Of a stretch of 64,000 nt of DNA, positions 6,527 to 34,012 are shown in pieces. The notes under the pieces were generated by a model, which ran no database searches, was not told the DNA's origin, and saw only the letters and a program-made list of their open reading frames with translations. The DNA lies in assembly GCA_963787835.1 (NCBI GenBank), contig CAWBEI010000002.1, forward strand, positions 320,001-384,000, given 5' to 3'. The DNA comes from Ignavibacteriota bacterium. GTDB taxonomy: Bacteria > Bacteroidota > Ignavibacteria > Palsa-1295. Numbering within the stretch: position 1 is the first letter of the stretch; each line of letters opens with the position of its first letter. Position numbers and translations under genes: made by a program.

Positions 6527-8392
6527 GCCCGGACCGACCAATATGTGTGCACAAAATTTCCGTTTGGCGTGGCAAGGGGGACTGGAAATATTACGAAGGT
6601 CAGGTCCGCGCGCGTCGCTCGCCTGACCCTCTGTTTTCTGTTTTTTTCATTTTTTATAATCAATTCAAATACACAGGCACAATGGAAACTCCTCAAAGCC
6701 AGTCCCGGCAATTTCGAAGTAATATATTTTCTGGATCTTCCCGGGCCATCGAGAATAGGATTTCTGGGTGGTTTCGACTCTTTATTTAAGACTACTGATG
6801 GAGGCAGTACATGGAAGCCAATTATTTTTGATGACCCGAATGCCGGTTATGGGGGCGTTACTCGTTATAATGATATTACATTCAAGGATTCCATAACAGG
6901 ATGGGTGGCGACGGATTTTGGTGGTTTTAAAACAACTGACGGTGGTGAAACGTGGTTCTTGGTTACTATAAATGACAGTGGCTCAGGGGGCACCGTGTGG
7001 GGCATTTATTACGATAAAGTGAGTGATGGTCTATTCCTTTCTACATTTGCTGGTGCCGCACCAGTGTGGCATGGGTTTAACGAACTCTCCTGGGATGAGG
7101 GTGTAACGTGGAAACCTTTCGCATCTGTTGGGAATGAAAACTCCGGAGGTTTTGCCTTTGCCGACGGTAATAATGGTTTATTATCATGGGGTGATTATTG
7201 GCCTGCCCCGTGGTGGCGCACGACAGATGGTGGGCATTCATGGAACGCTTTATCATTTGATACAGCATGTTGGCAGCCATTGGCCATTGCTAGAACAAAA
7301 ACCTATTTCGCGGTTTCTTCCCCCGGAAATGTATTCCGAACCGATAACGCTGGAGACACATGGTCGCTTATTTACTCCTTCCCACCCCAAATTCGTATGC
7401 CAGACGGCCCTGATTCTGGACAAACGGGGAGTTGCATCCGGGGCAACTTAGATAGCCTTTATGTCATGGCTTGCTCTGGCTGCTATCTCTCTACCGATCA
7501 AGGACTTTCATGGAAATACCTTTGTGGTGTGCCTGACCTGAGAATACCAACACAACGTTTTTACCTTAGAGACAAATTGTTATATGTCATTGGCTTTGAT
7601 TCGACACGTTATGCTCAGCTTTGGATGCTAAATATAGATTCCCTCAACACGGTCACTTCAAGTTCGTCCGTGCAGTTGGGTAATGGGTTAAAGCAGGAAA
7701 CCATTTATTCGGGGGATACGGTACGGGTGTATTATCTTTCTGATTCAGGGCTTGGTTCTGAGATCGGGAGCGATTCAATTTCCATTAGCATTTCGTTCGA
7801 TACGAATTCACTTTCACTCGTGCGCTTTGTGCCCGATTCCGGTTGGAGCATCAAAGATTCTTCCTATTCAAACGGAACGTATCATTTGCTGCTTGTCGAT
7901 TCGGATTCATTAGGTTTAGATAGTTCCGCAGTCATTCTCCGCGCCGATTTTGCATCCTATTTATCATCCACGCCCCAAAGCAAGGTGTATCTGGATAGCG
8001 TGCATTTCTATGGTCACCGCCTGAACTGCGATTGCGCAGTAGCTTCGGTCACCGGCGCGGATTCCGTCGAAATAGATTTCGAGGGCTGCGCGGATTCGCT
8101 TCTTCTTGCGGCGATGAGTGGCAAGCCGCTGTTCACGATCGAGAGCATTCAGCCGAATCCGGCGCAGGATGAGATTACGGTGCATCTATCGGGGAATGTT
8201 CAGCCGGTTATCGAGATGTATGATGCGTTGGGCAGAAGTGTGCTAAACTGCAACCCGACCACCCCCCAGCCCCCTCCTTCTATAGGAGGGGGAGTAATTC
8301 TCGATGTGTCGAACGTGCCATCGGGAATATATTTTGTTCGGGTGTCGGCGGGTGGGTATGTGCAGTCGCGGAGCGTGGTGGTGCAGCATTGA
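6434..8392 (+). CDS. BNR/Ycf48-like beta-propeller secreted protein with T9SS CTD (true start probably downstream of 6434)
   Basis: Repeated Asp-box KTTDGGxTW; signal-like LTLCFLFFSFFIINSNTQAQW; CTD IQPNPAQ...YDALGRSV...VPSGIYFVRV. Confidence 0.8.
   Translation: MIYFQTGPTNMYAQKFRAAWQGGRTCAARPYARTDQYVCTKFPFGVARGTGNITKVRSARVARLTLCFLFFSFFIINSNTQAQWKLLKASPGNFEVIYFLDLPGPSRIGFLGGFDSLFKTTDGGSTWKPIIFDDPNAGYGGVTRYNDITFKDSITGWVATDFGGFKTTDGGETWFLVTINDSGSGGTVWGIYYDKVSDGLFLSTFAGAAPVWHGFNELSWDEGVTWKPFASVGNENSGGFAFADGNNGLLSWGDYWPAPWWRTTDGGHSWNALSFDTACWQPLAIARTKTYFAVSSPGNVFRTDNAGDTWSLIYSFPPQIRMPDGPDSGQTGSCIRGNLDSLYVMACSGCYLSTDQGLSWKYLCGVPDLRIPTQRFYLRDKLLYVIGFDSTRYAQLWMLNIDSLNTVTSSSSVQLGNGLKQETIYSGDTVRVYYLSDSGLGSEIGSDSISISISFDTNSLSLVRFVPDSGWSIKDSSYSNGTYHLLLVDSDSLGLDSSAVILRADFASYLSSTPQSKVYLDSVHFYGHRLNCDCAVASVTGADSVEIDFEGCADSLLLAAMSGKPLFTIESIQPNPAQDEITVHLSGNVQPVIEMYDALGRSVLNCNPTTPQPPPSIGGGVILDVSNVPSGIYFVRVSAGGYVQSRSVVVQH
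8261..8294 (+). repeat. ACCCCCxxxCCCCCTCCT-N-AGGAGGGGG palindrome, in-frame in the T9SS CTD
   Basis: Near-identical copies at 34013, 42124 and 51930. Confidence 0.85.
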
Positions 8393-8459
8393 CCAGGATC
8401 TCATAATAATTGTTGAATTTTGTGGCAGGTGTGAAATGTGTCGTATATTGGAGCATGAT

Positions 8460-8616
8460 ATTACAAGCACCTATTTCTCTGAGAACAAACATTGCATAAG
8501 TTCATGAAAGAAAGAGGTGAGTTCATTAAATGACAATTCAATTGAGAGTAATAGGCACCTTTGCTGAAAGAACAAATGGCGAATTCAGCACAGGAACGGC
8601 ACAGCTCATGAACTCC
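8460..8616 (+). repeat. Bipartite dispersed non-coding repeat (two related GCACCT...TTCAT units 87 bp apart), intact copy
   Basis: 8460-8540 matches the reverse complement of 32651-32731 at 75/81 nt; 8541-8616 resembles the reverse complement of 22213-22290. Confidence 0.85.
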
Positions 8617-8722
8617 AAAAGAACAAACACACGAAAAGCGTTGCAATGAGCAAACGGAATGGATCGATTTGAAACTATCAGCCAGCCGAAGGGTTTATCA
8701 ATGCTTCGATCTTTTGCTTTTT

Positions 8723-9343
8723 ATGAAATACATACGAATCCCATCCCTATTGTTTCTGCTTTCGGTTGCGCTCGGCAGCATCTCCGGCTGCTCGAAGAGT
8801 TCCACATCCCCGGAAACGACGGCCACGCTTCCCTCCATACCGACGGTCGGAAGCTCGTTCATTATGCTGGATAATAATTCGATCACCACGTATGATACCG
8901 TAGTTGCGACCACGCTTCTTGATACAGCTCATCATGGCTCGACCGTGAGAGAATTTAACGCAACCGATGCTTCGAATGGCGGGACTTATTCGATGTTTCA
9001 GTCCTTTCTGACCAATGGTGATCTGGCAATCTCAGGTACTTCCTGGGGCCCGACGGGTGTCTTTGAAGCGCTTCCGTTTGCGTCTCACACCACCGTTACG
9101 ACTACGTTTTTCGATCAGGGCACATCTTCGACCGATACGATCACGGCCGTTTATCATAGCGGGAGTGCAGCTTATGTGCTTAATAAGCAGTCCTACGCCA
9201 CCGATAGCGTGACCGTTACTGCGTATTCACAGGGAACGGTGCTTCAATATTACTATACATACATTCCCGCTATTGGCCTGATCGCAAATTATGCCAGGTC
9301 AGACGGATATTCCCAATGGCTCACATCCTATACCGCAAAATAA
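8723..9343 (+). CDS. Hypothetical lipoprotein, Thr/Ser-rich
   Basis: MKYIRIPSLLFLLSVALGSISG-C lipobox. Confidence 0.7.
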   Translation: MKYIRIPSLLFLLSVALGSISGCSKSSTSPETTATLPSIPTVGSSFIMLDNNSITTYDTVVATTLLDTAHHGSTVREFNATDASNGGTYSMFQSFLTNGDLAISGTSWGPTGVFEALPFASHTTVTTTFFDQGTSSTDTITAVYHSGSAAYVLNKQSYATDSVTVTAYSQGTVLQYYYTYIPAIGLIANYARSDGYSQWLTSYTAK

Positions 9344-22212: not shown

Positions 22213-22292
22213 TTCATTTAATGAACTGTGGCGTTTCCGAGCCAATTTCGCCAATATGTCTTTTAGAAATAGGTGCCCTTTAAACGCAATTG
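22213..22292 (-). repeat. Second half of the bipartite repeat, left flank of the island
   Basis: Reverse complement CAATTGCGTTTAAAGGGCACCTATTTCTAAAAG...CACAGTTCATTAAATG aligns with 8539-8612. Confidence 0.7.
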
Positions 22293-22348
22293 GGTACTGT
22301 CCTAATTAGACTTGGTTCCTAAAACGATATAGTTTTTGTTGTTAAGGC

Positions 22349-22693
22349 TTACATCCCAATGCTTCCCATAAGTTGACGCACGATGCTCTGAATTAAATTC
22401 GGAGTGACTTCATTGAGCGAAAACGGTTGACCGGCATCTTGTTCAACGATAATTTTACCTTTACGAATCGAGAGCGGGATCATCCTTGTGATAGTAGGAG
22501 ACTCCGAATAGCCGGAAAAATGAATACGAAAACATCTCTCTTCCAGCCCATTTTTAGTTTCGGTAATAGTCAAGCTGCACCGATCTGAGTCGTGGATTAT
22601 TTCTGCGACAATATCGGGGTTTTGTACTAACCTCATTTTAATAAGGTCGAAGGTTGGAAGCATTATCTGGTTCGCACATTCATCAAAGTTCAT
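22349..22693 (-). CDS. Hypothetical passenger protein
   Basis: 114-aa ORF with upstream GGAAT-N17-CGTT motif. Confidence 0.55.
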   Translation of the reverse strand: MNFDECANQIMLPTFDLIKMRLVQNPDIVAEIIHDSDRCSLTITETKNGLEERCFRIHFSGYSESPTITRMIPLSIRKGKIIVEQDAGQPFSLNEVTPNLIQSIVRQLMGSIGM

Positions 22694-22807
22694 ACTCTCG
22701 GAACGCCAGAGATTCGAGTGGCATTCCCATCCCCACGGGCAGGTTCGGTGCTTTCAGGTTTTCCGATTGAGGAAACGATACGAGGAATATTGCCGTAAGA
22801 AGAACTG

Positions 22808-23152
22808 ATGGATTATCGTGGTCAAGAAGCATATTATGATGAAAAAGGAACACTTCGCCGAAAAAGCGACGGCGTGAGGATTGTTCTCACTCTAAAAGAA
22901 AGAGAGCAATATAAAAAAGAAGGCTATCTTTCTAACGGCGTAGAGACCGAGCCTCTTAGAGAAGAAAAATTGCAACGTCAGGGTTGTATGCTTTTATTGC
23001 TGAAGGATAAGTCACTGAACGACAAAGAAACTGAGCGGCGCATCAGCGCATTCGCAAAACAACTTATTAGAGAGAACAAAGGCAATCCTGACTTCTGGGT
23101 CATTCGCGCCCCAGAGGACAATACACAACCCTCTCATTGGACGGTTTTATGA
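22808..23152 (+). CDS. Hypothetical passenger protein
   Basis: 114-aa ORF after GAAAC-N17-CGTA motif. Confidence 0.55.
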   Translation: MDYRGQEAYYDEKGTLRRKSDGVRIVLTLKEREQYKKEGYLSNGVETEPLREEKLQRQGCMLLLLKDKSLNDKETERRISAFAKQLIRENKGNPDFWVIRAPEDNTQPSHWTVL

Positions 23153-23373
23153 TCGTCGGATGGAGCGACATATTTGTCTAAAATCTTGGTAATCTCATCT
23201 TCTGCGGAGCATTCTAAGCAAATGGCATAGTAGGTAAGGGCGAACGACTCTTCGTTTTCATATTCTCCTTTAACCGATTTAACGACCTCAACGGTATGCT
23301 TATCGTTAGTTGTGCATTTCGTATTCGCAAATCGTTTTTTAATTTCAGGGGGAATGCGAGGGATTGTTTCCAT
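23134..23373 (-). CDS. Small hypothetical passenger protein (Cys/His, CxxC)
   Basis: 79-aa ORF co-directional with the IS1595 transposase. Confidence 0.45.
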   Translation of the reverse strand: METIPRIPPEIKKRFANTKCTTNDKHTVEVVKSVKGEYENEESFALTYYAICLECSAEDEITKILDKYVAPSDDHKTVQ

Positions 23374-23379
23374 ACAAAT

Positions 23380-23565
23380 TCAACATTCGCTGGAGTTAAA
23401 GCATTCTTCAGGATCGAGCGCGCTTATTCGAAGCCGCTTTGCTCCATCGTGGCTTTCTTGCATAATACTCCGCACGGCGCGCCCGAAGCTCTTCGGTTCT
23501 TCGGAGGTCGTGTTTGTGTTTGGCGCGGAGTTCATTGGAACGGGTTGATCGAGGAGTCTTTTCAT
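23380..23565 (-). CDS. Small ORF coupled to the IS1595 transposase
   Basis: ATGA overlap with the transposase stop. Confidence 0.4.
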   Translation of the reverse strand: MKRLLDQPVPMNSAPNTNTTSEEPKSFGRAVRSIMQESHDGAKRLRISALDPEECFNSSEC

Positions 23566-24482
23566 AAGGATGCTCCGGTCAATTCCTCATACGTCAGCCG
23601 TTTGCCGAAGAGCATCGTGGCCGCCTTGATGAATCTGCCGGAGTCATTGTCCTTTCTGTTATCGTACCGGAAACCCTGTTCGTCAAGGTAGCGGTCAAGA
23701 TGATAGGGTTCAACGTGGATGTACGTGCCTTTGAGGGCGCGCTTCACCAGCGACCAATAGTTCTCAATGGTATTCGAATGCGTGTTACCCTTGACGTATT
23801 CACCGCGTTTGTGATTGACAGTCGAGTGATCGTAAACGACACCGAGTGCCTTGTACGAATTCGCTTCGTCACTGTAAAGGGTTGAGCCGACCTTCACGGT
23901 TGCAAGCACTTGATTCTGAAGCGTCCGTGCGTGAGTGTTCTCAATGACGCGCGCCTGTACTTTGCCACCCCGTTCAACGGCCCCGAACACGATGGTCTTA
24001 CCATCGCTTCCGCCACGGGATTTTACTTTGTTCGCGTGACGATTGCGCTCGGCACCGCCGAAGTAACTTTCATCTATCTCGACAGAACCCGTAAGTTTTT
24101 CCCCCGCATCCTTGGCAATACTTTCTCGGATCCTATGCCCGACATGCCATGCGCTCTTTTGTGTAATTTCTAAGGCCCGTGCTATTTCGTAGGAGCTAAT
24201 TCCATTCTTACAATTAACGACCATCCACACCGCAGGAATCCATTTTGTAATGGGAATTGGCGAGTTGTGCATGACCGTCCCGGCCTTCAAGGAGAACTGC
24301 TTCTTGCAGTCCCGGCATTTGAAGGCCGGACGAGTACGCATTCCGTAGATTGCTGTGGAGCCGCACTTTATGCAGCATCGTTCACCGCCATGCCAATAAA
24401 GCTCCGACAGGAATTCGACGCATACCACTTCCGAGGAGTAGTAGCGTACCGCTTCGAGTAGGCTTTTGGGTGTTTTGAGCAT
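23562..24482 (-). CDS. IS1595-family (ISXO2-like) DDE transposase
   Basis: Zn ribbon CIKC...CRDC; VEIDESYFGG, YSDE, VNH, HSNTIENYWS..KR, YLDE..FRY, KRLTYEEL. Confidence 0.92.
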   Translation of the reverse strand: MLKTPKSLLEAVRYYSSEVVCVEFLSELYWHGGERCCIKCGSTAIYGMRTRPAFKCRDCKKQFSLKAGTVMHNSPIPITKWIPAVWMVVNCKNGISSYEIARALEITQKSAWHVGHRIRESIAKDAGEKLTGSVEIDESYFGGAERNRHANKVKSRGGSDGKTIVFGAVERGGKVQARVIENTHARTLQNQVLATVKVGSTLYSDEANSYKALGVVYDHSTVNHKRGEYVKGNTHSNTIENYWSLVKRALKGTYIHVEPYHLDRYLDEQGFRYDNRKDNDSGRFIKAATMLFGKRLTYEELTGASL

Positions 24483-24979
24483 GATCGTGAGTTATTAGGA
24501 ACGTTCCCGGTGGAAATTGGATTAAATAGAAATACCCGATCATTAATAATAATGATCGGGCAAGTTGTGGCCCAAGCCACACGATTAAATTGTGCCAGAA
24601 TTCGCGTTCTGGTAGTAGCATGATGAGTGCGCGGGGGCGTTCTCGTCATGTACCCGGAGTGTGATTACTCCGGGTTTTCTTTTTCCGAATGAAGAAGCGT
24701 GGTCGATGCGGCTCATACGGAAAGAAAATCACATAAAAAACCCCAAGATATTACCTGAAAAACTCGCTTGCTGGCGTTGAGTCCCGACCGAAGCCGGGTA
24801 GGTAAATCTTGGGGTCAAACCCAAAAAAGTTTCAGTTGTATCGCCAGCAAGACGATGTAGGCTTTCACCTGACTTGGTTGCTAACGTATCATTACACTGT
24901 TCGTTTCAGTTCGCATGAAAAAAGTGGAAACTCTGAAAGCGGATTTGGGTTTCCATCGTGGCCTTTGGAACTAAATGGG

Positions 24980-26506
24980 TTATTTAGTAATCGCCAGATT
25001 GATGTAGCTCACCATATCTCCCACCCTAACGCGGCATACATATTTTCCCGATGGGAGCGTCTCCGTGCCGAGCGAAATGGATTGTGGGCCTTCGTTTGAA
25101 TAACCGTTCATAACCTCCATTATTTGTTTTCCCAGGGGATCATAAATAGCAATCTGCGTAAAGCTGGATTCTACTGTTGTAAATTTCAAGGTCATTCCAC
25201 CGCTTGAAGGATTTGGGAAAACTTCGGGGTTAAACCAATCGGGCTGTTGAGGGGTGGAAACACCCAACGTCGTATCTGAATGAGTCGGGCAATAAAGTTT
25301 CGCGAACATGCAGGAATCATCGCTCCCAAGTCCGCGTGGAGCGATGTTAGGTTGCGCCTGCTTAGATCCCATCAACATCCAATATCCTGGTATGCTACTC
25401 TTACAATAATTATAGTTATTAACGCAGGTGTCTCCACGAACAATCGTATCTGGATGTAGTAACCCGAGCCAATGGCCGATCTCATGCTCGATTATTTCCT
25501 TAAAGCTGAAATCATAAAACCCTTGATTTGCCGCGCCGGGGTCTGGGGCAGGTCCCGTGTACCATCCCATCAATGGACTCTGGTGTAGCTTGTAACCAGG
25601 AATAGGCTGAAGGGCATCGTTTCCATTTTGGTAGAAGAAGCTATTTGTTGCATTGTAAGTAATAAACCGATAATTTGAGTTCGGACATGCGCCTCCATCG
25701 GGGCATCCCGGATGCCCATACGTCCATGCAACAGGATAGCCGGCTTTTTTCAATCCAGATGCTTGATAAGTTCCTTGAAAGTGAAGGATATTAGTGTCCG
25801 GAATTATGAGGATACAGCAGGTTGTGTCGCCAGTAAATCCGCAAATTCCAAGCCACGCATTTAGATCGGATTGAGCATCAGAACTTGCACCACCCGTGTT
25901 CCAAACCTGATCGTAATGCACATCTGAGCCGTTGGCGTATGATATAGAGTCACTTATGTAAGTGTTGTATCTTTCTATATCGATTTCAAAGATTGAGTAA
26001 TCTTCTCTATCGCAGTCATAAACCGATAATGCCTCTTCATATTCTTCGTCATAGTCATAATTATCACGATTAGGAGGAACATCTGGTTCATGTCCATCAT
26101 GCACTTGGTGGAAATCGGTATCCCATTCGTCTAACCCGGCATTATAGGTTCCGGTATCCAAGACCTCACCCGGATCGGGAATGCAGCCGGAGAAAACATC
26201 ATAAGTATCTGGTAACGAAACAGGTTCTGGCGGCTCTGGAACAGGATCGGTCGGTTGATCGAATACACTCGTGTCAGGTGGAATTACATTTACACAACCC
26301 GGTATTTTCGATTTGGAGGGTGTGTAGCTTGGTGGTGGGTCATTCGGGTTTGTCGAACATTGCACGCCTTGAGCACCTGTAACGAAACAAAATACGTAAG
26401 GGAAACTCTCATTCCCGCATGGAATAGGGCAATGTATCGCCTGTGCCAACCCAATAGACGAAACGAAAAGGGAAGCAGCGATTAGAAGAAGTGGAAAAGA
26501 CTTCAT
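24980..26506 (-). CDS. Secreted metzincin-type zinc metalloprotease with T9SS CTD
   Basis: Signal peptide; HEIGHWLGLLH (HExxHxxGxxH) with a downstream Met; CTD VFPNPSS...LPSGKYVCRV. Confidence 0.8.
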   Translation of the reverse strand: MKSFPLLLIAASLFVSSIGLAQAIHCPIPCGNESFPYVFCFVTGAQGVQCSTNPNDPPPSYTPSKSKIPGCVNVIPPDTSVFDQPTDPVPEPPEPVSLPDTYDVFSGCIPDPGEVLDTGTYNAGLDEWDTDFHQVHDGHEPDVPPNRDNYDYDEEYEEALSVYDCDREDYSIFEIDIERYNTYISDSISYANGSDVHYDQVWNTGGASSDAQSDLNAWLGICGFTGDTTCCILIIPDTNILHFQGTYQASGLKKAGYPVAWTYGHPGCPDGGACPNSNYRFITYNATNSFFYQNGNDALQPIPGYKLHQSPLMGWYTGPAPDPGAANQGFYDFSFKEIIEHEIGHWLGLLHPDTIVRGDTCVNNYNYCKSSIPGYWMLMGSKQAQPNIAPRGLGSDDSCMFAKLYCPTHSDTTLGVSTPQQPDWFNPEVFPNPSSGGMTLKFTTVESSFTQIAIYDPLGKQIMEVMNGYSNEGPQSISLGTETLPSGKYVCRVRVGDMVSYINLAITK

Positions 26507-26545
26507 TGTTTGCTCCTTGTGGTTTTGGGAAGTGAATATGAACGA

Positions 26546-27592
26546 TTATGGATGGAGAATATTATAGATTCTCGCGCGAAGTCTTGACTTCCAGACCGCA
26601 ACCGTTAGACCACCAGAAATGGAGGCACCAAGTCCGAAATCGTCGTTAGGATCAACCACATGACCGCTTACGACTCTATACATCGCTCCTTGATTTCCAA
26701 AGACACCCCAATAAGGTTGAATGCTGAAATAGCCATTGGCGGTATCAATTCCAATTCCTGCGATTCGAAGGAACACGATGTATTCTCCTCCCGGCCTGAT
26801 CCACCATCCGGTCGAATCAGACAAAGCAGGCGAAAAAGGCATTTCATCACCTGCAATTGCACTTGCCCATTCGGGTGAATATTCAAATTGAATACACGCA
26901 CCACTATCAGCGCGAACTGCATACGTTGGCCAAGTTGAAGCATAGCTCATGGTTGTAATCTCATTGGATTTCCGGTGAGTGTGCATGTCTTCGCCGATAC
27001 AGAGTGGAATTTTTTGTCCCTTGATTTCATCAAGGATTGTGGAATTAACCAATACTATGTGTGGGGTAATGTTATCTGACGAGTTATACTTGACGATGGT
27101 ATCCCCGATAGTCACGTCCGCGATAATATCGGAAGCAAGAATAAAACCTGTACGACCGGTATCGCCTATACCATTTCCAATTTGATTAGCTAATATTGGA
27201 ATTGAGTTACCAGGGTTACCTTTATAGTGCCAAGAATAATCTGGGTGCCCTCCAAGAGGCCATGAACTGATCTCCCATTGATATAATGATAACGGATTAT
27301 CGTCACTAACTTTGTAAAGCATCTCGGCAAGGAACGTCATCGTGTCATCGTGCCCAAGATTCCCGATCCATTTGTTGATCAAGTTCCATTGCGTTGAGCG
27401 CATAAGTTCATCGGCCCAAAGGTATGCGCTTGCCACGTCGGAAGGTTGACTATCATATAGTGGTGGGACGGTCGTGAGAAGTGGGAGGCTATACTTGATT
27501 AAACCTGGATAATTCGGCCCCGTTTGGCTTCTCACAGCAGGTGCGGCAAAAAAACCTGCCCAAAGAAAGAGGATGAACATGATTCGTTTCAT
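26546..27592 (-). CDS. Secreted hypothetical protein upstream of the protease
   Basis: Signal peptide MKRIMFILFLWAGFFAAPAVRS; 39-bp gap to the protease gene. Confidence 0.7.
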   Translation of the reverse strand: MKRIMFILFLWAGFFAAPAVRSQTGPNYPGLIKYSLPLLTTVPPLYDSQPSDVASAYLWADELMRSTQWNLINKWIGNLGHDDTMTFLAEMLYKVSDDNPLSLYQWEISSWPLGGHPDYSWHYKGNPGNSIPILANQIGNGIGDTGRTGFILASDIIADVTIGDTIVKYNSSDNITPHIVLVNSTILDEIKGQKIPLCIGEDMHTHRKSNEITTMSYASTWPTYAVRADSGACIQFEYSPEWASAIAGDEMPFSPALSDSTGWWIRPGGEYIVFLRIAGIGIDTANGYFSIQPYWGVFGNQGAMYRVVSGHVVDPNDDFGLGASISGGLTVAVWKSRLRARIYNILHP

Positions 27593-27937
27593 AAAAACCC
27601 TTCCAGAAATGAATATTTGAAGTATGAAATTCAACTAACAGCACAAAGATACAACACTTTTTCCATCAAGTTTTAGATTTGATTTTCCGAATTGCAGGAG
27701 AATAGTAGGGTATTTGCAGGTGCTTTTTTCAAATGAAATGGGCGTTATCGTGGCTCTTTTCAACGGTTCATCGTGCATGATCAATTATTATGGAGGTTCT
27801 TATGATAATCGTGTTGCGAAGCATATTTTGTAAGAAAGCAACGATGGAGTAAGGAGGATAGAATCGGTGTTCGAAAGAAAGTCCGATGCTCACATGCCAA
27901 TGAAAAGCAACGGACTTCACCTCAAACAAAAATCATA

Positions 27938-28144
27938 ATGCTGAATGTACCGAAAACACTACTAAAAGAATTCGACGATATTATGAAAGCAAGCAAATGT
28001 GGTAATGACCGCTCCCACGTTATTTACGGAGATATAAACTGGGTTGTACGCGATGCGGCTGGCCTAAATCGTTACGATTGGTATATTAGATGTAGCGAGA
28101 ATGGGTGTTCCTTCACGGATCATGGTACTATCTGGCGGCCTTGA
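27938..28144 (+). CDS. Small hypothetical passenger protein (Cys/His-rich)
   Basis: 68-aa ORF, overlaps the convergent ORF. Confidence 0.35.
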   Translation: MLNVPKTLLKEFDDIMKASKCGNDRSHVIYGDINWVVRDAAGLNRYDWYIRCSENGCSFTDHGTIWRP

Positions 28145-28366
28145 ATCGAGGGGTAAATGAACTTCATTCCATTCTTCATTGGTTTGAGGCATAACATCGA
28201 AAAGCGGATCGTCTTTGAATTTTTCAACAATGTACTCGATAAATTCTTGATCTTTTGGACATTGCAATACCGCACCCGTGTGATAAGGATTCCCTCGCTC
28301 GGTGAATCGTGTTTCCCTCAGACGAAAATAGATGGCAACGTATTCTTTTTGTTCATCAGAAATCAT
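28064..28366 (-). CDS. Hypothetical passenger protein
   Basis: Shares its 35-bp upstream element with 22808-23152. Confidence 0.5.
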   Translation of the reverse strand: MISDEQKEYVAIYFRLRETRFTERGNPYHTGAVLQCPKDQEFIEYIVEKFKDDPLFDVMPQTNEEWNEVHLPLDSRPPDSTMIREGTPILATSNIPIVTI

Positions 28367-28509
28367 AATTCTACTTAAGGTAACGCCGCTTGTATCGTTT
28401 CCTCAATCGGAAATCCTGAAAGCGGCGTAACTTTATTTGGAAACCTCTGGTTGATTCTAATATATTAGTGCCATTTGACTTAGTTCCTAAAACGATATAG
28501 TATTTGTTG

Positions 28510-28758
28510 TTAAGAGGTTTTCGCTTCAGCCATCACAAAAACTCGATGACGGTAATTACCTTGTTCGCCTTCTTGGAAAAGACAGTGATTAACGCGGGAG
28601 ATTATGTAGTCCATCTTGCTATGATTAAATTCTTCACCGACTGATGGAATGACCGGTGCATGGTTGAGTGGGTATTCGCACTCGAACTCATACATAATCT
28701 GACCGCCTTCACGGAGAACGTATTGCACGGCGTATGTTACGCTTTTGATTGAATCCAT
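28510..28758 (-). CDS. Hypothetical passenger protein
   Basis: 82-aa ORF with TGAAC-N17-CGTT motif and the same flanking modules as 22349-22693. Confidence 0.55.
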   Translation of the reverse strand: MDSIKSVTYAVQYVLREGGQIMYEFECEYPLNHAPVIPSVGEEFNHSKMDYIISRVNHCLFQEGEQGNYRHRVFVMAEAKTS

Positions 28759-28887
28759 TGTGTTGTTGTTTCCTTTCGACCCTCGGAACGCCTTAAATTC
28801 GTGGCTCGTTCATGTCTCCCGAATGCGTTATTATCATCGAATATGGCGTTGAGCCACACTCCTGAAATTATTCACAATTAAAACAAT

Positions 28888-29136
28888 ATGTCTATGCAAA
28901 TTAAATTCAACCTTACGGGCAAATCGAACGGCATTAAAACTTACGATGTAAAGAGCGGAGAGGCTACTCTTACCACCGCAAGAAGATTGCCGGGTGTAAC
29001 GGGCTATGAAATCATCAATCCCCAAAACAACGAAGCAAAACAGGGGTTGGCAGGGGAACTCTTACGTGAGTTCTTCCCAGACCTACGGGGCGCTGCTTTA
29101 GAGATTGAAGATCAGGACGGCATGGCCATTATGTAG
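28888..29136 (+). CDS. Hypothetical passenger protein
   Basis: 82-aa ORF followed by a terminator hairpin. Confidence 0.5.
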   Translation: MSMQIKFNLTGKSNGIKTYDVKSGEATLTTARRLPGVTGYEIINPQNNEAKQGLAGELLREFFPDLRGAALEIEDQDGMAIM

Positions 29137-29147
29137 GGATGTTCAGA

Positions 29148-29173
29148 GAAGGGCGGCCCAATGGCCGCCCTTC
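29148..29173. terminator. Hairpin terminator between convergent genes
   Basis: GAAGGGCGGCC-CAAT-GGCCGCCCTTC. Confidence 0.65.
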
Positions 29174-29175
29174 AT

Positions 29176-29809
29176 TTATTGTAACACAGTATCCCATCCC
29201 CACGCACTGTTCGCAATCCCTGCCATTTGAGCCGGAGTGCAACCGATCGAGGAATGAAAGCGCATGAAATTGTAATGATAGAAGTGAAGATTCACTGCGG
29301 CTCGTAGGTTATCGAGCTTCTTGCTCCAAGCGTTTGTCAGCCTTGTCAGTCGCCTCAACCCCATACGCATCGTGAGGTTTTGCCTCTCGATGTAGCTGGT
29401 GGAAATATCTTCTACCAGTGGTGCGCCGAATATGACTCGTAGCGTTACTCCGACCAGACGGGCGGGTGAGTAACGACGCTCCCCAATGTACGCCTCGGAA
29501 TACTTTTTGTGAACTTGTCCGTAATCAATGGCACTCTTTCCATAGACCTTGTAAATCGCACTCACATAAGCATTCCAGGCATCGGTGCTGAGTTGGTAGC
29601 GGGTTTCGATGCGATCTCGAAGCTGTTCGAGAAGCTTCATAGCACTCCACCCATCACGCTTGCCAACATAGAATGCTGGTACGAGCTTGCTATCTGCATC
29701 AATGGCAACGAAGGTGTAAGCGTCACCATATTCCGCTTTATCAGCTAACGGATCTACACGTTTCTGTTTCTTTCCCACGTATCCCCAGACTTCATCGAGC
29801 TGTATCCTT
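29176..29809 (-). pseudogene. 5'-truncated IS1-like DDE transposase
   Basis: IQLDEVWGYVGKK, STD, ISTSYIERQNLTMRM; homologous to 30285-31139 but the HTH N-terminus is replaced exactly at the TIR starting at 29810. Confidence 0.85.
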
Positions 29810-29860
29810 GGTAGTGGCTCAGTTTGGGAACTTTCGATATTTTTATACTGAATTATGTTT

Positions 29861-30058
29861 ATGAACACACAAAAGATCGAAGTCGGCGATATGGTGAAAT
29901 TGAAAAACGGCGCAACGGTATTAATGTCCGTTCACGAATTGAACGGACATGGGATAGAATGCGATTGGTTAGATAACGAGAATAGATCGCAAAGACAGAC
30001 CTTTGCACCTGCCCAACTTATCCGTTTAACCGATTCCCAAAATAGTCAACGAGAATGA
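29861..30058 (+). CDS. YodC/DUF2158-like small protein
   Basis: IEVGDMVKLKNGATVLMSV...IECDW...QTFAPAQL. Confidence 0.7.
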   Translation: MNTQKIEVGDMVKLKNGATVLMSVHELNGHGIECDWLDNENRSQRQTFAPAQLIRLTDSQNSQRE

Positions 30059-30212
30059 GTTGCTCCGTTATGAAGGCACCTTCTTGGAGTTCCCCGTTTT
30101 TGCTGAACCATTGGCAAATCCAATGATCTCCTGAGCCTTTGCGATTAACGCTCATTATTGGAGTGCCCTGAATGAATCCAAGATGGACTAAAGAGCCGGG
30201 TTTTATTTCCAT
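30018..30212 (-). CDS. Second YodC/DUF2158-like small protein
   Basis: IKPGSLVHL...GTPIMSV...WICQWF...EGAFITEQL. Confidence 0.65.
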   Translation of the reverse strand: MEIKPGSLVHLGFIQGTPIMSVNRKGSGDHWICQWFSKNGELQEGAFITEQLILVDYFGNRLNG

Positions 30213-30243
30213 GATTGTAATAGAATTATGGTTATGAAATAGA

Positions 30244-30271
30244 ACGGGCTGGGGTGAAGTCCCAGCCCGTT
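30244..30271 (-). terminator. Hairpin after the transposase
   Basis: AACGGGCTGGG-GTGAAGT-CCCAGCCCGTT. Confidence 0.6.
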
Positions 30272-30284
30272 TGCGTTAACACGC

Positions 30285-31139
30285 TTAGTCAACCGTCAAA
30301 TCCCGTGTGTCAAGCAGGTCAACCAAGTCACCAATACTCCAAAGGTGATTCGTGAGTCCCGCCTTCATTGCAGGGGTCATTCTAAGGGACTGGTGAACCC
30401 TCACGAAATTGTAGTGCATGAAGTGCAAAGCGATTGATGCGATATGATGCTCAACGCTTTTCGAGAACCCATTCGTGAGCCGGGTAAAACGGCGCATTGA
30501 CATTCTCATTGTGAGGTTTTGACGCTCAACGATTGATGTAGAAATGTGATCGGCATTCGGATTTCCGAACTTCGGCTGTTTCTCAATGCTAATAACTTCA
30601 CCGGGGCTGTATCGCACGTCTGGCGAGTTGCCAGCACCTTTGCCATATTTCTTTACAAGCATTGCATAATCTACACCGTTGACGCCGAACGACTCACGAA
30701 CGGCGGTAAAATAATTTGCATGTGCGTCCGTTGTCAACTGAACGCGGTTAGCGAGACGGCTCGCTACATCACTCATGAACATATAGGCGTACTCTCCGTC
30801 ACGCCGTCCTACGAGCCATGAAATGATTAATTTGGAATCTGTATCAATGGCAGTCCAAGTCCACTGGGAACCAACATTGCCGGAAGCTCTCTCACCGTCC
30901 GTGCAATTAGCGTCTTTCTTTCCTACGAAGCTCCAAATCTCATCGGCCTCAACACGTTGCGCCGTGACACCCTTAACATTCTCATCGTGGAACTTCTCAC
31001 ACGCCGCACCTAAGTCAAGAAGGAGCTTAGAAATGGTATTCCGCGACACGTCAACCATGCGCGAAATCGCACGGATGGAATTGCCCTCGACAAGTGCCGA
31101 TACGATCTGAATTTGTTTGTCTCTGTTTAGCTTGTTCAT
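30285..31139 (-). CDS. IS1-like single-ORF transposase (HTH + DDE, no Zn finger)
   Basis: LVEGNSIRAISRMVDVSRNTI (HTH); VEADEIWSFVGKK; LTTD; HISTSIVERQNLTMRMSMRRFTRLTNGFSK. Confidence 0.9.
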   Translation of the reverse strand: MNKLNRDKQIQIVSALVEGNSIRAISRMVDVSRNTISKLLLDLGAACEKFHDENVKGVTAQRVEADEIWSFVGKKDANCTDGERASGNVGSQWTWTAIDTDSKLIISWLVGRRDGEYAYMFMSDVASRLANRVQLTTDAHANYFTAVRESFGVNGVDYAMLVKKYGKGAGNSPDVRYSPGEVISIEKQPKFGNPNADHISTSIVERQNLTMRMSMRRFTRLTNGFSKSVEHHIASIALHFMHYNFVRVHQSLRMTPAMKAGLTNHLWSIGDLVDLLDTRDLTVD

Positions 31140-31215
31140 GATAACTTAAACGGGTTACCCTAAGCATAAGTTTCAGTTTGTTTATTATTCTTCAAACAAA
31201 ATAGCATTCGTTAAG

Positions 31216-31470
31216 AAACCCGCGCCGGAACAATCCCGGCGCGGGTATGGTTAGTATAACCACGAGAGAAGCCGCCCGCCCGCAAAAGCAAACGGCTCCC
31301 CCTCCGTAACGCAAAAGCGTTACGCCTTTCACGGTAATCGTAAAAAGGGTGCTGGTGAAGCCACTAAAGGCTCTAACCGATTCCACGAAGTAGAAAGCGA
31401 CAGGAATCAGGCCACCAGCAAAATCAATATTAGGGGCTAATTTCGCCGTAGGAAGCGATTTTAGCCCTTT
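31216..31470 (-). ncRNA. Candidate structured non-coding RNA inside the transposon
   Basis: Six consecutive stem-loops, e.g. CGTAACGC-AAAA-GCGTTACG and a GCTGGTG...CACCAGC multiloop, ending in a terminator-like CCCGCGCCGG/CCGGCGCGGG hairpin. Confidence 0.45.
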
Positions 31471-31926
31471 TTATTCATCTTGTTTCGCTAAATTCCATTC
31501 TTTTAACCAGATTAAGTCGCCCTGACGCACGATTCTATCATCTTGTCCAACGCCGATAGCGAAGTTTCGGAATTCAAAAGTCTTGTTTCCGCTTCCCTTA
31601 TAGCCGTTTTTAACGAGGTGGTCGTATGCTTTCCTGAGAGAGTATTTGGCTGTTTTCTGTATTTTTAATAGCGCATAGGTCGCATTCGATGCCGTCATGC
31701 CAGTATAGAGTCCGGGCGACGGTAGATCGCCCTCATCCTCTTCATTCTCGGAAGCATCCTGTTCATCTTCATTTTCATCCGAAATCTCAATAAATTGTAG
31801 GAGTTCATCCGCCACGCCGGGTTTTAAGAATGAGGCAAGCCGATCATTCTCTTCCTTCAAAATCTCAATTTTTCCATCATTTTCAGCGATTTTAGCCCTA
31901 ATTTTGCTCTCTGAAAAGGTTATCAT
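31471..31926 (-). CDS. Hypothetical passenger protein (coiled coil, acidic linker, possible winged-helix C-terminus)
   Basis: Start MITFSE (31926) or ATG 31992; KIEILKEENDRLASFL heptads; DENEDEQDASENEEDE linker. Confidence 0.6.
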   Translation of the reverse strand: MITFSESKIRAKIAENDGKIEILKEENDRLASFLKPGVADELLQFIEISDENEDEQDASENEEDEGDLPSPGLYTGMTASNATYALLKIQKTAKYSLRKAYDHLVKNGYKGSGNKTFEFRNFAIGVGQDDRIVRQGDLIWLKEWNLAKQDE

Positions 31927-31995
31927 GATTTTCTCTGAATTATTTTTTGATGTTCTCGGTTCTATGGTTGCTACAAAATGCAAAACAGCCATTAG

Positions 31996-32072
31996 TAGCG
32001 GGGCGGGGGATCGAACCCCGCTCCTCTGGATCGAAAGTCCAGTGACCTACTGCCAAGTTAGTCTATCCCGCT
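31996..32072 (-). tRNA. Atypical tRNA-Glu(UUC)-like gene
   Basis: Cloverleaf: acceptor AGCGGGA/CCCCGCT, D stem GACT/GGTC with GG in a 12-nt loop, anticodon arm CTGGA-CTTTCGA-TCCAG, T arm CGGGG-TTCGATC-CCCCG, discriminator A followed by CTA. Confidence 0.8.
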
Positions 32073-32332
32073 GTTGAACTTAAAGGAATTGACCGAGTAA
32101 GCCGCCAAGCTTTTACCCGGTCTTTTTCGTTTAAGTGCACCCAACTAACCTTAACGGGTTCGAAAAGATTCATTAGTTAAATGGAAATAATGTAGTTAAA
32201 ATTTTAACGCCTCATTTCAGCAACAACAACTCGAAGCGTAAGACGTAGCTCAATACAGTTTTCAGCGCGTCAGATAAGGACGGAATCGACCCGAACGCGC
32301 CTGTATGACAATGAATAATTCCCACCACAGAT

Positions 32333-32566
32333 TCAATCTGTTTTCTTCTTCCACCGGGCTTTAGCCGCTTTTTTAGCAATCTCAGACCGCTTCTCGGCAC
32401 TTAGACGGGTCGCCCGAAGCTTTCCGCCCTCAGAACCCTTTTTTACGAATACTTCGCGGGGAATGGCTGTTTCTTCCTCGGTAGGCTCTATTTGACCCGT
32501 TGCATATTGCATGATCTTAAAAGCGCGTTGGTTTGGGTCACGGGGTAGTTTTTTGGGTTTTATCAT
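32333..32566 (-). CDS. Small basic transposon-associated protein (PRDPNQ / GGKxRA..LS..RSEIAKKAA.ARW family)
   Basis: Motif I recognise beside this type of IS1-like transposase (often auto-annotated histone-H1-like or RNA-binding); first gene inside the right TIR. Confidence 0.75.
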   Translation of the reverse strand: MIKPKKLPRDPNQRAFKIMQYATGQIEPTEEETAIPREVFVKKGSEGGKLRATRLSAEKRSEIAKKAAKARWKKKTD

Positions 32567-32650
32567 AACCCCTTAACGTTGCTTAGGGGGTAAGCATTGC
32601 TATAAAAAGTATAAAACACGAAACAATGGTTCCGAAAATGAGCCACTACC

Positions 32651-32731
32651 TGAATTGTCATTTAATGAACTCACCTCTTTCTTTCATGAACTTATGCAAT
32701 ATTTGTTCTTCCAGAAATAGGTGCTCTTAAT
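32651..32731 (-). repeat. First half of the bipartite repeat, right flank of the island
   Basis: 75/81 identical to 8460-8540; the 50 nt next to the TIR are identical. Confidence 0.9.
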
Positions 32732-32789
32732 ACCACTCTCTAATATACGACACTTTTCCCAGACGCCACGAAATTCGAAATTTTCTTTG

Positions 32790-33047
32790 ACCTCGGAGGC
32801 AGACGGCTCAAGCCATGCGGTGTAGCCTTGACCTTTAGGTCACAGTGTGATTTCTTTGTGCTCCGCGACCGTGGCCTGAAGGTCACGGCTATGCCGCTTC
32901 TTTCATTGGGGCGTGATTTGATCTGAGCCAATCATCGAAACCATCACACGAATCACATAAATCATAGTTCAGACTCGGAGGCGGACGACGCAAGCCGAGC
33001 AGTGTAGACGTGACCTACAGGTCACGGTATAAATTCTTTGCGCTCCG
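32790..33047. repeat. Cluster of GTAG-type REP-like units with ~75-bp direct repeats
   Basis: CTCGGAGGC.GACG.C.CAAGCC...GTGTAG.C.TGACCT..AGGTCAC.GT...TTCTTTG.GCTCCG near 32792 and 32974; inverted unit near 32869-32891. Confidence 0.7.
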
Positions 33048-33884: not shown

Positions 33885-34012
33885 AAAATCGCTCAAATTT
33901 TCTCCTGCACAATTCATAAAAATTTTCCAGTGCCATTTACGGCACCTTTGTGATTTGGTGCGGTGTTCCTGAATTCGGACTTATTTACGAAAACGGGTGT
34001 TCCACCCTGACC

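Follow-up and report, generated by a model that had tools for sequence, protein, structure and literature searches.

Positions 8401-8640 of the window (the whole stretch of 64,000 nucleotides analysed here) hold a composite element in which a predicted promoter is followed by an operator, two GTTCAT(G/T)AA sites, half of a second operator and a conserved tail (Table 1). The two related units and the linker between 8460 and 8616 that were recognised in the preliminary description are indeed there, with the AGAACAAA copies 87 nt and the GCACC copies 88 nt apart; the element, however, starts about 60 nt further to the left than described and includes the promoter, homology to the second copy running from 8401. 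The -35 of this promoter is poor, and the two short ORFs in the element comprise, by eye, only 14 and 9 codons. Just behind the module, at about 8669-8695, lies a locus-specific GAAACTATC...AGGGTTT motif, kept in four genomes (the window and its orthologues L101, L102 and L103), which is possibly the downstream gene's own alternative-sigma promoter.

Table 1. Features of the module at 8401-8640, of the island that splits the second module, and of the recA upstream region.
Feature	Position	Strand	Remarks
Predicted sigma70 promoter	8422..8449	+	weak -35 at 8422-8427, -10 TATATT at 8444-8449
Operator 1, likely LexA box (GTGC-N8-GCAC type, left half degenerate)	8455..8470	+	15.2 bits, matrix trained only on sites upstream of lexA/recA
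First GTTCAT(G/T)AA site	8500..8508	+	21 nt to the next site, a spacing that recurs
Second GTTCAT(G/T)AA site plus 3 nt, the 12-mer preceding IS1-family insertion points	8521..8532	+
8-mer duplicated on IS1-like insertion, unoccupied in this copy	8533..8540	+	duplicated in G002:C4; also left of the element at 32650
Operator 2, right half-site only	8554..8562	+	score -0.9
Tail, blocks common to type I modules and the lexA leader	8571..8640	+	third TCATGAAC site at 8604-8615
Right half-module, upstream of cmk	22214..22292	-	8-mer 22292-22285 beside element 2; half-site 22277-22269; GTTCAT 22226-22214
Rest of IS1-family element 2	22293..29809	-	5'-truncated transposase 29176-29809, 42% to T1; secreted-protein cargo; right end 22293
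IS1595 transposase inside element 2	23562-24482
IS1-family element 1, 2841 bp	29810..32650	-	22-bp inverted repeats, 20/22 alike
Content of element 1			77-aa small basic gene, tRNA-Glu, 284-aa transposase, two DUF2158 genes
IS1-family DDE transposase T1	30285..31139	-	PF03400 36.7 bits (cut-off 24.1); NF033558 67 bits (cut-off 100)
Left half of second module	32651..32790	-	-10 32747-32742; operator 1 32736-32721, 17.9 bits; GTTCAT 32691, 32670; 8-mer 32658-32651
Full palindromic box upstream of recA (34080)	33929..33946	+	19.1 bits

The copy at 8460-8616 is one of about 70 long copies of a dispersed promoter-like module that is likely repressed by LexA. The view of it as a two-copy element has to be abandoned: a two-block matrix scan of the 3.57-Mb source genome, which is Candidatus Kapabacteria-like (its LexA relatives are named Candidatus Kapabacteria or Bacteroidota), finds 79 modules, 70 of them long, against 0 in the reversed-genome control. 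They divide into 49 of type I, 21 of type II, to which the 8460-8616 copy belongs, and 9 short 'solo' modules; the exact linker occurs 16 times intact and once interrupted. Long modules share one order of parts: a -10 box (TATATT), RGCACC 15-16 nt on, an optional spacer of heptamer repeats, conserved blocks that contain GTTCAT or ATGAAC, and, 88-240 nt downstream, RGCACC again. The sigma70-like -10 box is kept in 79 modules, and in many of them a clear -35 of the TTGAC type precedes it at 17 nt. A broad pattern scan of the whole genome collection returned at least 120 matches in unrelated taxa and was taken as mostly chance.

The first operator points to the regulator. Among the loci used (30 of 35 lexA and 30 recA, from 33 genomes), RGCACC is found upstream of lexA in 29/30 and of recA in 28/30 regions (shuffle means 3.8 and 4.5), and the palindrome (G/A)TGC-Nn-GCAC gives 47 matches at n = 8 and at most one at each other n from 4 to 12. 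The same palindrome stands just behind the -10 box in the 8460-8616 copy, which supports the earlier reading of the element as a protein-binding or regulatory one. A box behind a -10 occurs in 14/16 genomes of the family vs 4/134 of other families; with a stricter box pattern the count is 21/24 vs 0/16 genomes, with 42 copies in the source genome and 1-4 in several relatives. LexA itself has one match in each of 35 genomes and is intact, with cleavage site A99-G100, catalytic S133 and K170, and a TIGR00498 score over the cut-off. The lexA gene of the source genome has a module immediately in front of it, and solo boxes are found ahead of dinB, recQ, ssb, a gene for alkylation repair, and DNA methyltransferase, BRO and SIR2-like genes. 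The first operators score at least 10 bits in 65 of 79 modules, the second sites in 0/71, that is, they are half-sites; because the lexA/recA matrix at 14 bits also has 45 matches in the reversed genome, a single operator score proves little. Taken together, repression of the modules by LexA through GTGC-N8-GCAC is highly probable. Solo boxes often stand before DNA methyltransferase genes (L003, L007, L031, L034, L036, L038), hinting at SOS control of restriction-modification loci.

The Fibrobacter LexA box is of the TGC-N8-GCA type and has the same core as the Kapabacteria box. Our literature search, which mostly lay outside subscription journals, found no published report of a GTGC-N8-GCAC box or of a dispersed LexA-box repeat; the E. 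coli operator is CTGT-N8-ACAG and that of Geobacter GGTT-N10-AACC (PMC8565304), and the LexA motifs published for Bacteroidetes and Balneolaeota differ from GTGC-N8-GCAC as far as the accessible portions of the sources give them (PMC8565304, PMC7739468). Like known SOS boxes, the present one is a palindrome with a fixed spacer upstream of lexA, recA and dinB, alongside a canonical LexA; unlike them, most of its copies lie in a 70-copy repeat and not at repair genes. It provides a testable SOS box for an uncultured family related to Bacteroidota.

Downstream of the operator, TT(C/A)AT(G/T)AA sites follow each other at 21 or 31-32 nt in 21/27 cases. The distances between operators are periodic at about 11 bp (jitter p 0.0005 for 64 values, 0.044 for the 46 unique values), with the best period of the unique distances at 11.1-11.4, not 10.5, and the periodicity then weak. 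These spacings suggest proteins seated on one face of double-stranded DNA, and a second protein bound at the GTTCAT(G/T)AA sites is probable. A search for it among operator-less sites of this type led to bipA, coaE and an NlpC gene, with no regulator among them.

The second copy lies on the minus strand, as the preliminary description had it, and is split there (unit A at 32731-32651, 75/81 identical; linker and unit B at 22292-22213, 72% over 75 nt); the island between its halves contains two transposons, not one. In T1, the transposase of element 1, residues D66, D138 and E205 are invariant in 11 relatives, forming a DDE of IS1 type with an N-terminal HTH; since its NF033558 score falls below the cut-off, T1 represents a divergent IS1 subgroup. 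The right end of element 1 abuts the 5'-truncated transposase of element 2, whose end type at 22293 is a different one and is seen whole in G044:C10 and G014:C6. Each half of the module adjoins its own IS1-family element, which explains the 2-nt overlap of the halves; as the ends of the two elements differ and this family duplicates 8 bp, a 2-bp CA duplication by a single transposon is ruled out. IS1-family elements make target duplications of 8-9 bp, and IS1 can cause adjacent deletions. Two elements thus entered module DNA, and a deletion next to element 1 likely removed the part between them. The right copy of element 1's 8-bp duplication is lost in the window, and the junction of element 2 lies 6 nt to the right of the usual register. 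The 8460-8616 copy, taken earlier for the empty version of the insertion site, is homologous to the target but is not literally the empty site of one insertion. Upstream of cmk, relatives have a whole module (G002, G009), a partial one (G014) or none (G006, G013).

Three details of the island may be added. At its left end, element 1 has a 77-aa basic gene (32333-32566, minus strand) whose look-alikes in the Atlas are unnamed 'histone H1 family' clusters and which is a candidate regulator or targeting helper. The same IS1-family element encloses a tRNA-Glu (31995-32072, minus strand). Within element 2, 28465-28514 is a degenerate inner copy of the right subterminal sequence at 22305-22346 (39/42 alike), suggesting stepwise growth of the island.

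Whether such insertions have a preferred target was followed in elements gathered by transposase similarity, blind to their flanks, and by a search with the pattern of the ends. Among 44 relatives with exact 8-bp duplications, TTCAT(G/T)AA (at least 7/8) stands at one offset in 5/6 complete elements of the genus, in 0/4 of other genera and in 0/34 from metagenomes, against a background of 4.4e-5 per base; in the five, the register is exactly 12 bp plus the 8-bp duplication from GTTCAT(G/T)AA. An independent IS1-like insertion in G002:C4 hit the same nucleotide of another module copy at a different locus, duplicating ACAATTCA. Altogether, 8 register junctions occur in 5 genomes, including the junction in the window, a 161-bp miniature element and a degenerate end in G009; the register is used in both orientations and by two transposase groups about 42% alike. 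The same-nucleotide insertion and the 5/6 elements at one register bear out the proposal that the repeat serves as a landing pad for IS1-like transposons, and neither of the two findings named in advance as speaking against it, that only two copies exist and that related transposons show no flank preference, was made. The CAATTCA/ATTG junction is not a common feature of the targets; what they share is GTTCAT(G/T)AA.

The rule has exceptions. The motif is missing at three genus elements of which both flanks can be seen (G006:C8, G003:C2, G011:C38), one motif-bearing junction lies outside a module (L454), and the sigma70 promoters inside modules were not targeted at the junctions seen. A search with the register pattern placed 9/23 matches at the register, one of them (G044:C47) probably by chance; as the pattern was built from the first examples, this count is not independent. 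The miniature element, at 2766-2926 of L312 (G009:C32), belongs to the IS1 family and holds a REP-like hairpin pair; a degenerate relative is found at another gene's stop codon in L454.

In metagenome relatives, the position can be occupied by another hexamer. In 104 metagenome ends, only one of which per insertion can face a promoter, TTG(A/C)(C/T) is present at offset 15 in 17 ends, no other offset having more than 3, while TT at offset 15 is found in 39 vs a mean of 6.8; a -10-like box follows at promoter spacing in 12/17 of these TTG sites vs 253/4490 (5.6%) of sites at the same loci. At the genus junctions, offsets 15-20 read TGAACT in 5/8 and are one or two letters off in the rest, whereas TGAAC occurs at offset 15 in 0/104 metagenome ends; inspection by eye of the genus junctions saw no conserved -10 behind TGAACT. 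The other Kapabacteria genera show the -35-type geometry in 0/35 ends; GAAC is at offset 15 in 4/35 ends of other genera of the family and in at most 2 at any other offset, a post hoc count in which some ends are unverified. ECF sigma factors typically use -35 boxes of the GAAC type.

Promoter targeting of this kind is known from the Mutator-like transposases of TnGBS, ISLre2 and ISKra4, which insert 15-17 bp upstream of sigma-A -35 boxes (PMC3942029); our literature search found no published report of it for IS1. The metagenome relatives resemble these systems in their fixed 15-bp distance from the -35 box (PMC3942029), but here the transposase is of the IS1 family, both orientations are used, and one lineage has TGAACT in place of TTGAC. 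In Pfam and NCBIfam, the transposase of element 1 has no match to a Mutator family (p-MULT), only IS1-type matches.

Two readings of the register compete. A host protein may guide the insertion, which we regard as rather likely; or the transposase may read the target directly. TTGAC and TGAACT would then mimic the TTTGAA core found in the element's own inverted repeats and the modules would be hit as pseudo-ends, with no need for a host protein; the module would still be a LexA cassette. Direct readout would account for the position of that core, which in most relatives is 13-18 nt from the terminus and thus almost at the target's distance, for the elements lying beside resident ends in L174 and L234, and for the motif outside a module in L454; IS30 and IS911 do insert next to their own inverted repeats (PMC9333248). 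It fits poorly with elements of the same inverted repeat using TTGAC in other hosts and TGAACT here, and with two divergent transposases keeping one register in one genus; the excess of -10 boxes behind TTG sites argues in the same direction, though a loss of in-gene insertions could inflate it. Direct readout is accordingly an unlikely account of the register, and guidance by a host protein is preferred.

The modules themselves mark synteny breaks and probably border variable DNA. Their two flanks are adjacent in G000 at 1/41 module junctions vs 15/54 controls, and where both orthologues are present at 1/8 vs 15/23. T9SS-tail genes, as detected with a home-made profile, lie upstream of 28/70 modules vs 262/2748 genes. 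Modules face the next gene in 45/70 cases (expected 54.6%, p 0.065); with an orientation so near chance, they are not mainly promoters of downstream genes. All p values given here overstate significance, the genomes being related. The copies in the source genome are mosaics, in which promoter and body assort independently: pairs with near-identical promoters have the same body type in 17/29 cases, equal to the 59% background (Mantel r 0.08), and the median body identity between nearest neighbours is 0.88. Upstream of the gene at 8669, too, a type I module stands in G002, G006 and G014 and a type II module in G000. The lexA leaders of G000, G005, G009 and G014 carry the linker block, which suggests that the module family may derive from the lexA promoter or exchange with it. 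For 34 non-solo modules of three relatives, G000 has the downstream orthologue in 25 cases, 16 of them with a module there and 9 scored without one (one of the nine has a promoter-less partial copy); none of the 34 has both flanks adjacent in G000, and no crossover or empty site was caught among them. A role as recombination anchors is slightly favoured by these patterns.

Could the modules instead be selfish non-autonomous elements, moved by Y1/RAYT or IS1-family enzymes or by way of an SOS-induced RNA, with recombination and breakpoints as by-products? Copy numbers by the strict pattern range from 0 to 42 per genome within the family, the genome has several Y1 transposases and REP-like hairpins, the nine orthologous genes scored module-free would fit a mobile element, and an IS in G044 has an internal promoter with the box. 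Against this stand the mosaic rather than clonal copies, the 16/25 positions common to the species, the lack of any empty site or duplication among the 34 modules compared, and the absence of inverted repeats at the termini (no module has edges that match in inverted orientation at 11 of 12 positions), which also argues against a MITE; a selfish origin is therefore improbable. Still less probable, and hardly more than conceivable, is that the modules are genes for a family of DNA-damage-induced small RNAs, functional by structure or by sequence. A promoter, a repressor box, a conserved body of 90-240 nt in 70 copies and a near-random orientation to the neighbours are what such genes would show; yet the 8460-8616 copy folds with z -0.08 and so lacks a hairpin signal, consensus pairs are invariant or broken without compensatory covariation (8/48 copies, for example, break one stem pair), indels amount to one helical turn, no terminator is predicted in 8300-8800 (the one copy scanned), and Rfam matches only tRNA in the window. 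On the same fold value, uncompensated pairs and lack of an Rfam match, a structured RNA or REP is rejected, in keeping with the original statement that the repeat is not a REP-type hairpin. The modules are also not empty cassettes of four-helix-bundle or GxxExxY genes: among the loci listed of 40, no promoter with operator lies upstream of these, although a GxxExxY gene in G018 does have a solo box before it. Genes of both kinds (L128-L139, L252-L279) have on either side short repeats, in inverted orientation, of the kinds that also make up the module spacers.

On balance, the module is reasonably likely to be a scattered, promoter-like cassette under probable repression by LexA, a likely anchor for recombination at the borders of variable DNA, and a target of IS1-family elements at a fixed register. 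In such a cassette, LexA dimers at GTGC-N8-GCAC downstream of the -10 would, on strong indications, silence the promoter until DNA damage, and a second protein would occupy the GTTCAT(G/T)AA sites, which are spaced two or three helical turns apart. Recombination between copies could then shuffle promoters, spacers and bodies, as the mosaic pattern indicates, with new accessory genes, often for secreted proteins, arriving upstream. At the observed register, a protein at the -35-like hexamer, 15 bp from the future IS end, may position the transposition complex; this hexamer would be TGAACT in the present genus and, where other hosts are concerned, TTGAC as found in sigma70 promoters, and its reader would most likely be sigma region 4 of the RNA polymerase holoenzyme, or the site's own protein. 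Bolder, and doubtful as a whole, is the scenario that a bacterial genus amplified its SOS promoter into genome-wide LexA-silenced recombination cassettes swapping accessory secreted-protein genes at their borders, with a widespread IS1 clade reaching safe landing sites by way of sigma-bound -35 boxes and shifting, in this lineage, from sigma70 promoters to an alternative-sigma-like hexamer that the cassettes carry.

Each part of this picture has a precedent; the combination, the box and the anchoring of IS1 at promoters appear to be unreported within the literature searched. The PeSL cassettes of T4-type phages are repeated sigma70-like promoters at the borders of variable genes, whose shuffling is ascribed to recombination between copies (PMC2839356, PMC4122927). 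By analogy, the modules would work like PeSL cassettes, with which they share the repeated sigma70-like promoter and probably the position at variable borders (PMC2839356, PMC4122927), but they are not classed as PeSL: they lie genome-wide in a bacterial chromosome, no terminator stem-loop is seen in the copy scanned, and they have a repressor box and phased second sites. REP sequences are targets of IS1397, ISKpn1, IS621 and others of the IS3, IS110, IS4, IS256 and IS5 families (PMC1525189). Here, too, an IS repeatedly inserts into a family of intergenic repeats, but the target is not a REP hairpin, insertion keeps its distance from a short motif beyond the duplicated bases, and IS1 is absent from the families listed in the accessible part of that source (PMC1525189).

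A chromosome would thus hold about 70 copies of a repressor-controlled promoter, a kind of cassette previously known for phage hyperplastic regions, and promoter-anchored insertion would extend from Mutator-like transposases to an IS1-family clade present in many metagenomes. The switch from TTGAC to TGAACT at the 15-bp register offers a natural experiment on whether RNA polymerase or the transposase picks the targets, and could inform integration tools that spare genes.

Some observations were made along the way. In L167 (G044:C10), at 8041-8546, an IS1-family element has inside it a promoter with the box, immediately ahead of a SocA/Panacea antitoxin-like gene, and SocA-like cargo is also present in the elements of L157 and L159. 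L525 (G000:C2:2500-13000) contains, near the contig start, two inverted copies of bipA/typA with near-identical upstream DNA, either a duplication or an assembly artefact. At 1654-2600 of the window, a 541-aa ORF on the minus strand contains coding repeats of 132-138 nt.
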